In this document: positions 27,261 to 64,000 of the stretch, one piece after another
Layout: every line of letters starts with the position of its first letter
Position numbering within the stretch: position 1 is the stretch's first letter
Assembly (NCBI GenBank): GCA_963751345.1
Contig: CAVVUS010000010.1
Span: 192,001 to 256,000, forward strand
DNA: 64,000 bases
Origin: an uncultured Chloroflexia bacterium
GTDB lineage: Bacteria > Chloroflexota > Anaerolineae > B4-G1 > SLSP01
Direction of reading: 5' to 3'
Program-made: the position numbers and the translations under genes
The notes under the pieces: model-generated
What the model was told of the DNA's origin: nothing
The model's input: only the letters and a program-made list of their open reading frames with translations
Database searches by the model: none

Positions 27261-27288
27261 TTGACATCTGGCACGCTGCCCCTATAAT
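27261..27288 (+). promoter_or_regulatory. Consensus sigma70 promoter of the aspS-gatCAB leader
   Basis: TTGACA-16nt-TATAAT. Confidence 0.85.
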
Positions 27289-27347
27289 CTAGGCTAATGG
27301 ACTCGGTGGCAGCGAATCGTCCAATTCTCATAGGAGGCACGTGCTCG

Positions 27348-27425
27348 ATGTTGTTGTTGAATCAGTACCAGCAGATCAACGATAACGATAATCCCGGCGT
27401 GCGCCTGTGGGAGGGTCGAGCCTAG
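27348..27425 (+). CDS. Asn/Gln/Asp-rich attenuator leader peptide MLLLNQYQQINDNDNPGVRLWEGRA
   Basis: RBS AGGAGG at 27332-27337; 9 of codons 5-15 are N/Q/D; overlaps the antiterminator sequence. Confidence 0.8.
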   Translation: MLLLNQYQQINDNDNPGVRLWEGRA

Positions 27426-27450
27426 CCGCTCAGAAACTAGCCAAGGACCC

Positions 27451-27539
27451 AAGCCACGGGCGCACGCAGGTGCTCGTGGCTTTTTTCGTGCTTCAGTCTA
27501 GCGAAAGCCACGGACCGGCGTAAGAGCCCGTGGCTTTTT
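27451..27539 (+). terminator. Two tandem intrinsic terminators (attenuator) upstream of aspS
   Basis: AAGCCACGGGCGC...GTGCTCGTGGCTTTTTT (27451-27486) and AAAGCCACGG...CCGTGGCTTTTT (27504-27539). Confidence 0.85.
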
Positions 27540-27571
27540 GCATAACTCGGGCACAAGAGGGGGGATGTCGA

Positions 27572-29348
27572 ATGGAGAAACGGACGCATCGATGCGGGGC
27601 CTTGCGGTCGGAGCACATCGGTCAGCACGTCACGCTGATGGGGTGGGTGCGCACGCGACGTGATCATGGTTGGCTGATCTTCCTCGATCTATGGGATCGC
27701 GAGGGCGTGACCCAGATTGTCGCCGATCCCAACGATTCCGCCGATGCCCACGCGGTGGCTGGGGACCTCAGGGATGAGTATGTCATCGCCGTAAGCGGCG
27801 TGGTGCGCGCGCGACCACAGGGCACGGAGAACCCCAGCCTGGCCACCGGAGAGATCGAGGTGGTCGCCAACGCTATCGAGATCCTGAACGCCACGACGCC
27901 GCTCCCCTTTCCCGTCGAAGATGCGCCGAAGGTGGATGAGGTGGTACGTTACCGTTACCGCTACCTGGACCTTCGGCGTGAGGCGATGCAGCGGAACTTT
28001 CGGCTCCGCCATCGCGTGGTCAAGACGCTGCGTGATTTCCTGGACACAGAGGGCTTCCTGGAGGTTGAGACGCCGGTCTTGACCCGGAGCACGCCCGAGG
28101 GTGCCCGAGACTACCTGGTGCCCAGCAGGATTCATCCCGGTGAGTTCTACGCGTTGCCGCAGTCGCCCCAGCAGATGAAACAGTTGCTGATGGTCGCCGG
28201 CGTGGACCGCTACTATCAGGTGGCGCGCTGCTTTCGCGATGAGGACCTCCGGGCCGACCGCCAGCCCGAGTTCACGCAGTTGGACCTGGAGATGAGCTTT
28301 GTCGAGCAGGAGGACGTCCTTTCCATGGTCGAGGCGATGGTCCGTGAGATCGTCGCGACGGCGGCGCCCGACCGTCCTCTGGCGACGACGCCCTTCCTCC
28401 GGCTGACCTACGACGAGGCGATGGCGCGGTACGGGACGGACAAGCCCGATCTGCGTTTCGGCATGGCCTTCGTCGACTGCTCGGCGATTCTGTCAGAGAG
28501 TGAGGTGCGGATCTTCCGGGACGTCACCGCGGGGGGCGGGGCCGTCAAGGGATTCCGCGCTTCGGGGTACGGCGCGACCTCTGCGACGGAGCTGGAGACG
28601 CTGCAGACGTTGAGCAAGGAGTTGGGCGCCCAGGGCGTGATCTGGTTCCGCGTTCGGGACGGCGGGTTGGACGCTCCTGTTGCGCGCCATCTCAGCGCCG
28701 AGGAGCAGCGGGCGCTGATCGAGGCCTTCGACGCCGGGGATGGGGACCTGCTGCTGCTGGTGGCAGGTGCCCTCGACGTCGTCAACGGCGCGCTCGACGG
28801 GCTGCGTCGGGAAATGGGTCTACGTCTGGGTCTGATCGATTCGGGAGCCCTGGCCTTCGCCTGGGTGGTTGACTTTCCCGCTCTTCAAATGGGACGCAGA
28901 CAATCACCGTTGGGATTCGGAGCACCATCCGTTTACCAGCCCGCGACCGGAGGATCTTGCGACACTTGAGTCGGATCCGGGTGGGGCACGCGCCAGTTGC
29001 TACGATCTGGTCTGTAACGGTTGGGAACTCGGGTCGGGCTCGATCAGGATCCATCAGCGGGCGCTTCAGGAACGCGTGCTCAAGTTGTTGGCTTACACGC
29101 CCGAGGAGGCAGAGGCCAGCTTTGGTCACTTGATGGAGGCCTTCGAGTATGGCGCGCCGCCGCACGGTGGGTTCGCTGTGGGCATCGATCGCCTCGTCGC
29201 GATATTGGCCGGGACTGACACGATCCGGGATGTGATTGCCTTCCCGAAAACGCGTCAAGCCACCGACCTGACGATGCGCGCGCCGGCGCCCGTCACGGCT
29301 GCCCAACTGGAGGAAATCCACATCCGGATTGCAGGACGCCGCCGTTAG
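27572..29348 (+). CDS. aspS: Aspartate-tRNA ligase, probably non-discriminating; +1 frameshift at about 28875-28880
   Basis: [46 protein letters not shown]; continues in ORF 28869-29348 (HHPFT, GAPPHGG, GIDRL, VIAFPK). Confidence 0.95.
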
Positions 29349-62113: not shown

Positions 62114-62551
62114 ATGTTCACAGATTCGTACGCCGGCGACCTCGAGGTCGTCGTGGTTGGGATTGCACCCGGCGAGATGCTGTTGGAGACGATTGAGGCG
62201 GCGATTAAGGAGCACGGCGTCCGGAACGGCGCCGTGGTGTCGGGGATTGGAACCCTCAAGGTTGCTCGGATGCACCATATCGAGCACGATCGATTCCCGC
62301 CCGATGATCGGATCTTCATCGTCGAGAAACCCCTGGAAGTGTCGAGCATCAGCGGCATCATCGCTGATGGCAAGCCACATCTGCACATGACGGTGGGATT
62401 CCGCGACGAATGGTCGATCGCCGGACATCTCGAACCCGGCTCGGAGGTGCTATATCTGGCCGAAGTGGTGATCCTCCGGTTCGATGGCTTGGAGTTGGAT
62501 CGGCACTTTGATGCCGAGCGGCGGATCAGCCTGCTGGGAAGGAAAGGCTGA
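62114..62551 (+). CDS. PPC-domain (DUF296) protein
   Basis: PGEMLLETI, SGIGTL, EVSSISG, PHLHMT, GHL...LAEV. Confidence 0.88.
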   Translation: MFTDSYAGDLEVVVVGIAPGEMLLETIEAAIKEHGVRNGAVVSGIGTLKVARMHHIEHDRFPPDDRIFIVEKPLEVSSISGIIADGKPHLHMTVGFRDEWSIAGHLEPGSEVLYLAEVVILRFDGLELDRHFDAERRISLLGRKG

Positions 62552-62579
62552 TTGACAAGCCGGGAACCTGGTTTAGAAT
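62552..62579 (+). promoter_or_regulatory. sigma70 promoter of the GNAT-operon leader
   Basis: TTGACA-16nt-TAGAAT. Confidence 0.8.
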
Positions 62580-62608
62580 AGAAGCACCATTCTTTTAGGA
62601 GGCGCACG

Positions 62609-62677
62609 ATGTCGATGAACAATAGCTCTGCTGTCGCAACCAACGACCGACAAGTGCGCCTGTACCTGGCAGGATAA
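62609..62677 (+). CDS. Attenuator leader peptide MSMNNSSAVATNDRQVRLYLAG
   Basis: RBS AGGAGG; shares GTGCGCCTGT (VRL) with the aspS leader; followed by double terminators. Confidence 0.72.
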   Translation: MSMNNSSAVATNDRQVRLYLAG

Positions 62678-62706
62678 CCACGATCTGCTAGCATAGGTTT
62701 CCAACC

Positions 62707-62812
62707 AAGCCACGGGCTCACTTCGGCCCGTGGCTTTTTTGTTCCCTCATCCAGAGACAACGCCTCCGCGTCTGTTATAGCCACGGGCCCACCGGGTCTC
62801 GTGGCTTTCTTT
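62707..62812 (+). terminator. Two tandem intrinsic terminators (attenuator) upstream of the GNAT gene
   Basis: AAGCCACGGGC...GCCCGTGGCTTTTTT (62707-62740) and AGCCACGGG...CTCGTGGCTTTCTTT (62779-62812). Confidence 0.85.
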
Positions 62813-62932
62813 GTTTCCATGTGGGAGGTGAGTGATGTCAGAACGACGGATGGATGTGCCAAGTGCTGAAATGGCGGAAATGAGCACCGAATGGGTACCT
62901 ATTCATGAAGCTGGAAACCAGGGAGTTGAGGA

Positions 62933-63916
62933 ATGTTTGATGAAGTAGACGATCTCACCCTCAGGCCGTTCAAGCCTGAGGATGCGTCGAAGATGGTGGA
63001 ACTGCAGCGGCGCTGCTTGGAGGAGTCCCGCGATACCAGCCTGCTGCCTGAGGGTTTCTATTTCAGCCCCGGCTTTGCCGGTGGGGACAATATCCTGTGT
63101 GCCGTTGACAGCGCCGGGACGCTCGTCGGGCACGCGATGGTCTACCCGAGCCATGTCCATCCACAACTGGGCGTCTGGATGCTATGGCTGGACTTGCGGG
63201 TGGATCCCGACTATGCACCTGCGGATCAACTCAGGGATCGCCTGCTGGAGCGCATCCAGGTGCGCGCGCGAGAGATCCAAGCCGGGTTGGACCGGCGGGC
63301 GATGCTCTACGCTACGTATCTCTCTGAGGGCGGGGCTAGCCTCGCCTATCTGCGATCCAGAGGATTCGAGCTCGTGGAACGCATCTACCAGATGCAGCGG
63401 GACCTATCGAAGCCTGTCCCGGACTATCCTCAACCGGAAGGTGCGGAGGTTCGGGACTGGCGGATGGAGACTGAGGAGGAGCAGCGCCGCTACCTGGAGG
63501 CCTATGATGCCTCCTTCGAGAACGAGAGCAAGCCCCTGGAGCGACTGCAGCACTTCATGGGATGGTCGGCGTGGGCGCCCGGCACAACCTTCACTGCCTT
63601 TGTCGATGACCGGGTGGTGGGGAGCGTGATGGTCTACTACGAGCCTGACCTGGAACAGAACGAGGAGCGTGTCGGTTACACGGAGTACGTTTTCGTCCGT
63701 CCCGGATGGCGGCGGCAAGGCCTCGCCCGCCACCTCGTGACGCGGGGACTCCACTTCCTGAAGGAACGGGGGCTCGCTTACGCGCGGCTGGAAGTTGCCG
63801 CGCACAACGAGGGGGCTGTCGGGCTCTATAGGTCGCTGGGATACGAGCGCCTGCACGAGGAGATCACACTCGGTCTGCGCCTCGACGATCCGGTGGGCGC
63901 AGGGGGCAACGTATGA
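62933..63916 (+). CDS. Tandem-domain GNAT acetyltransferase
   Basis: Two GNAT folds; VFVRPGWRRQGLA acetyl-CoA motif, NEGAVGLYRSLGY. Confidence 0.92.
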   Translation: MFDEVDDLTLRPFKPEDASKMVELQRRCLEESRDTSLLPEGFYFSPGFAGGDNILCAVDSAGTLVGHAMVYPSHVHPQLGVWMLWLDLRVDPDYAPADQLRDRLLERIQVRAREIQAGLDRRAMLYATYLSEGGASLAYLRSRGFELVERIYQMQRDLSKPVPDYPQPEGAEVRDWRMETEEEQRRYLEAYDASFENESKPLERLQHFMGWSAWAPGTTFTAFVDDRVVGSVMVYYEPDLEQNEERVGYTEYVFVRPGWRRQGLARHLVTRGLHFLKERGLAYARLEVAAHNEGAVGLYRSLGYERLHEEITLGLRLDDPVGAGGNV

Positions 63917-64000
63917 CTCCGCCGAGCACACTCGAGGATCATACATCCGTGACGTCCGACTCCACGACTGACACCGATCTCCCGCGCGTGCAGGGGCTCG
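63913..64000 (+). CDS. Start of the next operon gene (3' truncated)
   Basis: ATGA overlap with the GNAT stop; frame open to the window end (MTPPSTLED...PRVQGL). Confidence 0.5.
   Translation, partial: MTPPSTLEDHTSVTSDSTTDTDLPRVQGL

Follow-up and report, generated by a model that had tools for sequence, protein, structure and literature searches.

The classical leader-peptide attenuators of Proteobacteria (trp, his, leu, thr, pheA and pheST) have a promoter-proximal short open reading frame (ORF) led by a Shine-Dalgarno sequence (SD), and overlapping 1:2, 2:3 and 3:4 (terminator) helices among which the position of the ribosome picks the fold. We report a leader of the same general layout from an uncultured Chloroflexia bacterium (assembly GCA_963751345.1, contig CAVVUS010000010.1). 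It occupies positions 62552–62816 of the 64,000-nt stretch that was analyzed, hereafter the window, and precedes a GNAT acetyltransferase gene and rsgA. As in the classical systems, an SD-led upstream ORF (uORF) lies close to a promoter and the helices overlap; the choice of fold by the ribosome is predicted here. Paralogous leaders of aspS and asnA likewise have a run of cognate (Asn) codons, which the rsgA copy lacks. The rsgA leader further differs from the classical attenuators in that its segment 1 is the SD itself, in that it has two tandem terminators with a common stem core, and in its target, a ribosome-assembly GTPase rather than a biosynthetic operon or an aminoacyl-tRNA synthetase. 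Overall, we consider the element to be probably a ribosome-mediated (leader-peptide) transcription attenuator that controls an operon in which rsgA is the conserved gene. The class of mechanism is a known one; the signal and a putative relay between the terminators could make this leader more than a classical attenuator.

A functionally similar system is the rli80-hflXr leader of Listeria monocytogenes. According to the accessible part of its report (PMC6310831), it comprises a 14-aa ORF, an anti-antiterminator, an antiterminator and a terminator through which stalled ribosomes control a GTPase gene, and it responds experimentally to lincomycin and erythromycin. Judged from that part of the report, the two leaders share a small ORF, of 14 aa in Listeria and 22 aa in the present copy, the same three-element layout and a ribosome-associated GTPase as the target. 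They differ in the function of the GTPase, HflX-type ribosome splitting there and 30S maturation by RsgA here, and in that the Listeria leader has an RLR arrest motif and a single terminator whereas the rsgA leader has no RLR and two terminators. The likeness is one of function, and we claim no sequence relationship. The msrD-type ABC-F leaders, as presented in the accessible portion of 10.1101/2021.11.29.470318, have a logic of uORF and terminator that is common to an ABC-F paralogue of the present leader and to its counterparts in five relatives; the rsgA copy differs in preceding GNAT-rsgA rather than an ABC-F gene. T-box leaders resemble the present family in combining a terminator/antiterminator switch with translation-related genes and many loci per genome, but they read uncharged tRNA directly, without a uORF. 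In Firmicutes, the T-box is the usual control of aspS, asnS and asnA. Searched with Rfam 15 at gathering thresholds, the whole window yielded only a tRNA and no match to a T-box model; at E ≤ 10, the region 62500–62950 yielded two chance-level matches, of 17.9 and 13.3 bits versus gathering thresholds of 61 and 41. Full-text literature searches, with subscription journals outside their coverage, turned up no comparable leader for rsgA, for aspS or from Chloroflexi, and no Asn-sensing leader for AspRS or AsnA genes; of the papers retrieved, one dealt with Shewanella and another stated that Chloroflexi were represented by too few genomes. We know of no leader-peptide control of rsgA.

The features of the leader and its surroundings are listed in Table 1. 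An initial annotation of the window, made from its letters alone, had claimed a TTGACA-16-TA(G/T)AAT promoter, a ribosome-binding site followed by a short uORF encoding V-R-L and an aromatic residue, and two tandem terminators. Each of these elements is in place. A promoter scan of the leader region returned one site, at 11 of 12 consensus positions, where 0.2 were expected; it begins immediately 3′ of the stop codon of the PCC-domain gene. The SD of the uORF is TAGGAGG (62596–62602), the aromatic residue is the tyrosine of V-R-L-Y, and both terminators fold at the predicted place. The pairing that had been given as 11 of 12 positions between 62652–62663 and 62712–62723 comprises ten Watson-Crick pairs, one G-U pair and one C-U mismatch, so that the figure of 11 holds if the wobble is counted. 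Within the 64-kb window, exact copies of the core GTGCGCCTGT occur only at 27399, in the aspS leader, and at 62654. The stem sequence AGCCACGG occurs nine times in the window versus 3.3 expected, a count that none of 100 shuffles reached, and the hairpin AGCCACGG...CGTGGCT followed by a T-run occurs four times in the 5.4-Mb genome, always in the rsgA and aspS leaders. The fold of 62590–62815 has a z-score of −5.0. With a covariance model built from related leaders, the rsgA site was recovered genome-wide at E = 1.8e-19. In aspS-type leaders, the counterpart of the small hairpin over the uORF stop codon displays an exchange of GGGTC/GACCC for GGATC/GATCC.

Table 1. Positions of the leader elements, neighboring genes and the aspS paralogue in the window.
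Feature	Position	Strand	Remarks
aspS-gatC leader	27263..27540	+	Promoter, SD, 25-codon Asn/Asp-rich uORF, segment 2, T1 and T2
PCC-domain gene	62114-62551		Upstream neighbor of the leader
Promoter-like site TTGACA-16 nt-TAGAAT	62552..62579	+	Sigma-70-like, 11/12 consensus positions
SD and segment 1 (AGGCGCAC, 62600-62607)	62596..62608	+	Anti-antiterminator arm, partner of segment 2
uORF, 22 codons, MSMNNSSAVATNDRQVRLYLAG, stop TAA	62609..62677	+	SD-led
Segment 2 (AAGTGCGCCTGT)	62652..62663	+	Alternative partners: segment 1, or the T1 5′ arm plus loop (62712-62723)
Small hairpin between segment 2 and terminator 1, over the uORF stop codon	62666..62691	+	In predicted folds only
Terminator 1 (T1): 12-pair stem 62707-62736, 6-nt loop, T-run	62707..62741	+	Terminator scan; −22.8 kcal/mol
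Terminator 2 (T2): imperfect hairpin 62779-62806, T1 stem core, tail TTCTTTGTTT	62779..62816	+	−20.2 kcal/mol
Strong SD (GGGAGGTG) and 37-codon ORF (62835-62948)	62823..62948	+	Overlaps the GNAT start codon
GNAT acetyltransferase, 327 aa, two domains	62933..63916	+	Generic GNAT, no specific subfamily
rsgA, start (346 aa, runs to contig position 256953)	63913..64000	+	Start overlaps the GNAT stop

Covariation in 49 related rsgA-type leaders, aligned with MAFFT (alignment A5, with the SD region out of register in a few rows), supports three mutually exclusive helices. The 1:2 helix joins 62600–62607 to 62654–62661 and is present in both the minimum free energy (MFE) and the centroid fold. It was paired in 98.8% of cells in a set of 12 leaders and in 88.0% in all 49, with double-sided changes at five of nine pairs (for example, GC in 29 and AU in 13); an extension of this helix, GTCG/CGAC, was weak, at 64.6% paired. 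The antiterminator, in which segment 2 pairs with the 5′ arm and loop of T1, was paired in 80.1% of cells versus at most 57.6% in slid registers, the three counted helices having been defined from the source sequence, which favors the unslid register. Double-sided changes occurred at eight of its 15 pairs (75 cells), and none of 500 shuffles matched either the observed cells or the covariation score. The compensatory changes that the initial annotation had proposed for this pairing can thus be counted, both within the rsgA type and across paralogue types: among 26 sequences of different types, four antiterminator pairs, comprising 27 cells, changed on both sides (0/500 shuffles), those extending into the T1 loop alternating among A-U, G-C and U-A. 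The 1:2 helix and T1 counted jointly were 91.1% paired, with 10 of 19 pairs changed on both sides and no equal among 500 shuffles of the 49 leaders; T1 itself was paired in 93.9 to 98.5% of cells across relatives.

Single columns of the alignment covary with more than one partner. One segment 2 column covaries with segment 1 (GC 29, AU 13) and also with the T1 5′ arm (CG 33, UA 10, UG 5), and the same column of the T1 5′ arm covaries in turn with the T1 3′ arm (GC 34, AU 10). Mutually exclusive helices would be expected to leave such a pattern. In the source copy, the competing structures have predicted energies of −25.2 (1:2 helix), −25.3 (2:3 helix), −22.8 (T1) and −20.2 kcal/mol (T2).

These helices suggest how the leader might operate. 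Transcription would start at the promoter of Table 1, and the RNA would then take one of two forms. In the OFF form, segment 1 (AGGCGCAC) would pair with segment 2 (the uORF's 3′ end, GTGCGCCT), T1 and T2 would fold and the transcript would end; the MFE structure computed without a ribosome mask consists of the 1:2 helix, T1 and T2. The same outcome would be expected when a ribosome has reached the uORF stop codon, which lies 12 nt past segment 2: it would mask that segment, and T1 could form. In the ON form, a ribosome on the SD or the early codons, or one stalled before segment 2, would block segment 1, and the freed segment 2 would take the emerging 5′ arm and loop of T1. The released T1 3′ arm could then pair with the identical T2 5′ arm, such that both terminators would be disarmed. 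We infer from this arrangement that translation of the uORF decides between the two forms.

The proposed relay is a family-level hypothesis suggested by the folds, rather than a general rule. In most leaders of every type, T2 has the same CCACGG core as T1, and in some lineages the core has changed jointly in both terminators (GTCACGG, GCCGCGG and GCCGTGG). A duplex of the T1 3′ arm with the T2 5′ arm reached −10 kcal/mol or lower in 56 of 75 leaders versus 21% for shuffled arms. In the source copy, the cross hairpin of these arms is predicted at −29.9 versus −20.2 kcal/mol for T2, and when the T1 5′ arm was forced to pair upstream, the MFE structure contained the cross hairpin and lacked T2. 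In Anaerolineales-type loci (L098, L141, L144, L118, L124 and L092), the spacer from T1 to T2 contains a conserved AGCCGCGTCT-like element, similar to segment 2 as well as to the T1 5′ arm, whose partner in the fold is the T1 3′ arm. It may reflect a different handling of T2 in these loci. The rsgA leader L010/L060 (G020:C2) has a tandem CCTAAGCG-like repeat between the uORF stop codon and T1, and a run of N after T2.

Several observations weigh against attenuation as outlined above. Termination and read-through at T1 and T2 are predictions from folding models. When the 5′ part of the uORF was masked in the source copy, T1 was still part of the MFE structure (−38.3 kcal/mol), so that the antitermination choice would be kinetic; the classical trp leader is likewise kinetic. 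T2 is imperfect, and a simple terminator scan of the region did not call it. The source-copy uORF has no run of codons for any one amino acid. The relay was predicted in 24 of 61 leaders, of which 22 were among the 32 of families f1 (n = 31) and f2 (n = 1); of 29 leaders from other Anaerolineae loci, only two were predicted to relay, one of them duplicating a leader of the f1/f2 set, and in leaders without a predicted relay T2 is stronger and farther off. Within the genus, the helices are nearly invariant, with one double-sided pair in each of two counts. Finally, the shuffle controls are inflated by the kinship of the sequences, and the weight is therefore carried by the slid controls and the multi-partner pattern.

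The paralogous leaders behave as the attenuator model predicts, with respect to both their uORFs and their folds. All 12 aspS/asnA uORFs that were compared contain four to seven Asn codons, located three to 10 codons before segment 2; for one row (G017), the Asn count was used and the Asn offsets are unreliable, an earlier Trp having been taken as the anchor. Pooled, these 12 peptides (305 residues) are 19.0% Asn, 11.8% Gln and 4.6% Asp. Folding of the aspS copy with the 5′ portion of its uORF masked gave the antiterminator as the MFE structure (−46.2 kcal/mol), and masking segment 2 allowed T1 to form. From their sequences, the aspS/asnA leaders look like Asn-sensing attenuators for AspRS and AsnA genes. 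Such sensing fits the position of gatC adjoining aspS. AspRS and GatCAB provide a route to Asn-tRNA. Leaders of asnA were seen in other genera (L048, L059, L061, L062 and L064). The aspS gene of the window is split into overlapping frames (27530–28969 and 28869–29348) and is intact, at 605 aa, in the closest relative (L066); near 28877, a C-run has one extra C (CCC versus CC in L066). The split reflects an error of assembly or else a genuine frameshift.

To establish the extent of the family, a covariance model, R1, was built from 26 leaders, spanning segment 2 through T1, and searched in 61 related genomes, as the initial annotation had suggested. Two rows were dropped before counting, one a partial match to T2 only and the other a match on the reverse strand. 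The search found further copies beyond the two then known. In the source genome, R1 has three copies, upstream of rsgA, of aspS (27263–27540) and of an ABC-F gene on contig 7. The rsgA-operon leader is a paralogue of the aspS leader, as had been proposed; the two share architecture and core and are both matched by R1. The third copy (contig 7, 4543–4674, minus strand; L034) was found at E = 2.7e-6. It lies 5′ of a gene encoding two ABC_tran domains and an ABC_tran_Xtn linker, an ABC-F target of the kind that had been anticipated. The uORF of this copy terminates in ...SLS-stop directly against segment 2, and the T1 stem is different (AGCGTGGGCG...); the same holds in five relatives.

Across the related genomes, R1 identified 52 leaders in 30 of the 61. 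All 21 genomes of the genus were positive, as were 28 of 36 in the family, the source genome excluded, and 1 of 24 in the order's two other families. The gene downstream is that of AspRS in 19 of the 52 leaders, rsgA (with or without GNAT, or GNAT at a contig end) in 17, ABC-F in six, AsnA in five, a single ABC ATPase in three, and a second GNAT type and a RIO kinase in one each. The idea of a reusable attenuator scaffold is borne out by these copies before several types of gene. The leader of the RIO group (L073, G021:C14:313595-313697) stands 5′ of a gene for a RIO1-type kinase (Pfam RIO1, E = 4.3e-36). RIO kinases act in small-subunit maturation in archaea and eukaryotes.

The link to rsgA extends beyond these genomes. 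Of 80 rsgA loci retrieved through protein similarity, 39 had an R1 match upstream on the same strand at E ≤ 1e-3, and 42 did at E ≤ 2.5e-3. The matches end 45 to 500 nt 5′ of the tblastn match to RsgA, or ~1.2 kb in L078, where a GNAT gene lies between. Most of the 39 leader-bearing loci are from metagenome-assembled genomes (MAGs) of Anaerolineae, Anaerolineales or Chloroflexota, including Bellilinea and Villigracilis. In a class-wide sample, stricter filters gave R1 matches in 24 of 151 genomes, a lower bound since R1 was built within one family. Of the 17 leaders of the rsgA group, 10 lie directly 5′ of rsgA, six precede GNAT and then rsgA, and one precedes a GNAT gene at a contig end. The designation of the target as a GNAT operon therefore needs correction: rsgA is the gene that stays with the leader, and the GNAT gene is an insertion in part of the genus.

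We next consider what the rsgA leader might sense. An SD-led ORF of 14 to 28 codons is present in 49 of 49 aligned leaders; the script that called uORFs was limited to 12–32 codons, and two rows (L124 and L125) start at GTG, likely in the wrong frame. Segment 2 is read in differing frames across lineages (VRL, WARL, GASLH and RRVSA) and is thus conserved there as RNA and not as peptide. The 49 rsgA-type peptides are 15.7% Val, 4.8% Asn and 2.9% Asp. In 26 of them, a [VL][VLI]V triplet lies in the N-terminal half; its first position draws on all four Val codons, which hints at a constraint on amino acids or on codon identity. The source-copy peptide has V-R-L-Y and S-A-V-A-T, and neither R-L-R nor IAVV. 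Our best guess is that the signal is a general slowing of early translation rather than the supply of one amino acid.

One elaboration of the attenuator, which we regard as rather unlikely, is that the rsgA leader is a feedback sensor of small-subunit or early-translation competence, in which a single event disarms both terminators by relay and the scaffold is re-tuned by exchange of the uORF. Ribosomes or immature 30S subunits on the strong SD, slow over the first codons, would hold segment 1, and RsgA, together with GNAT in this genome, would rise when ribosome maturation falters. Re-tuning would have placed Asn codons before aspS and asnA, and other peptides before the genes for ABC-F, the ABC ATPase and the RIO kinase.

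A further possibility is that the uORF encodes a drug-dependent arrest peptide, in which case the leader would sense antibiotics in the manner of rli80-hflXr, msrD or erm and switch on rsgA and GNAT as protective factors. The accessible part of PMC6310831 shows a similar architecture controlling a ribosome-associated GTPase, a paralogous leader precedes an ABC-F gene in the same genome, and leader-peptide regulation of ABC-F resistance genes has been published (10.1101/2021.11.29.470318, in its accessible portion). The [VL][VLI]V triplet also suggests a constraint at the level of amino acids, all four Val codons being used, and IAVV is given as a stalling motif of the erm(A) leader in the part of PMC12698558 that was available. 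The source peptide, however, has neither IAVV nor R-L-R and reads S-A-V-A-T, RsgA and GNAT score below all resistance-model cut-offs, and conservation in many lineages before a housekeeping gene would fit a physiological signal better. We judge an antibiotic sensor unlikely. Lower still is the probability that the rsgA copy senses amidated aminoacyl-tRNA, as had been proposed initially, through the Asn and Asp codons of its uORF. In the source uORF, codons 4, 5 and 12 specify Asn and codon 13 specifies Asp; codons 4 and 5 lie ~30 nt 5′ of segment 2, where stalling would free segment 2, and the aspS/asnA paralogues are clearly Asn-rich. Moreover, an N-D pair occurs in nine of 13 rsgA-type peptides of genus g1, and the RNA-level alternative for its conservation, a hairpin of 4 to 5 pairs inside the uORF, was not significant (75% paired versus 70% when slid by −3; 126 of 500 shuffles). 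Nevertheless, the Asn and Asp contents of the 49 rsgA-type peptides are far from the 19.0% Asn of the aspS/asnA type, and Asn at codons 4 and 5 is confined to the source genome and its nearest relative, other members of the genus having S-Q, N-Q, S-K or S-I. The conserved N-D lies two codons 5′ of segment 2, where a stalled ribosome, given the usual size of its footprint, would cover segment 2, and rsgA has no evident tie to Asn supply. Asn/Asp sensing was rejected for the rsgA copy on uORF composition.

Two other explanations would dispense with the uORF as the deciding element. The CCACGG...CCGTGG hairpins might be bound by a protein, or by some other factor acting in trans, that governs termination, the uORF being incidental or modulating. 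In both terminators, the stem core shows unusual conservation across most leaders of all types and across distant lineages, and in the source genome the stem hairpin is found only at the rsgA and aspS leaders. Each stem position is, however, held by two or three alternative partners, enough to explain even this extreme conservation without a protein. The SD-led uORF is present in every aligned leader, Asn-rich uORFs sit exactly before Asn-related genes, and no candidate factor gene was noticed travelling with the leaders, although no systematic search for one was made. Such a factor is accordingly very improbable in our estimate. The promoter, strong SD and two terminators could also belong to a free-standing gene for a small protein or small RNA that merely lies 5′ of GNAT-rsgA. 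This is scarcely credible: place and orientation before rsgA are kept though the upstream neighbor varies, the C-terminal part of the peptide is in different frames between lineages, and the covarying structure overlaps and competes with the terminator.

If the rsgA leader is an attenuator, the expression of a 30S-assembly GTPase would be tied to the performance of translating ribosomes. Anaerolineae, known mostly from MAGs and almost unexplored with respect to gene regulation, would gain a cis-regulatory RNA family. The aspS/asnA members of this family would constitute an Asn-sensing attenuator in organisms that apparently make Asn-tRNA via AspRS and GatCAB. More generally, the family would be a natural case of one terminator/antiterminator scaffold reused with varied uORFs, with tandem terminators that are perhaps disarmed by relay, a design that could serve synthetic regulation. 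For annotation, the leaders would mark regulated translation-related operons and short ORFs missed by gene callers.

With respect to the surrounding genes, the PCC-domain gene is found 5′ of the leader only in the source genome and its closest relative. The 37-codon ORF that follows T2 had no match in a Pfam search; in the related leaders that were read, the place of this short ORF is kept and its sequence is not. The SD directly after T2 has the form GGAGGTG, 5–6 bases and ATG. In rsgA-type leaders, it opens a non-conserved ORF of 37 to ~50 codons that overlaps the start of GNAT or rsgA, and in aspS-type leaders the same SD-ATG module is the aspS start itself. The module may act in translational coupling. 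The identity of rsgA is clear (TIGR00157, 222.9 bits versus a cut-off of 100); it is a housekeeping gene for a 30S-maturation GTPase and has no match to a resistance model above cut-off.

The GNAT gene occupies the position between the leader and rsgA in only part of the genus. The closest solved structure to its product is PDB 7q3a, an uncharacterized 'putative acetyltransferase'; other matches, with weak scores, are to N-alpha-acetyltransferases and RimI-type enzymes. The two-domain layout is MshD-like, at a match below the MshD cut-off. Among resistance models, none matched above cut-off, the AAC-type models scoring 16 to 23 bits versus cut-offs of 140 to 350. At two of the 10 leaders that lie directly 5′ of rsgA, the gene after rsgA encodes a GNAT of a second, unrelated type. 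This second type has 27% identity over 63 aa to the GNAT of the window, a distant relation only. It stands after rsgA in two genomes and directly after the leader in a third (L012 2757–3041, L015 2656–2850 and L063 1524–2771). Acetyltransferases thus recur next to rsgA in varied arrangements.

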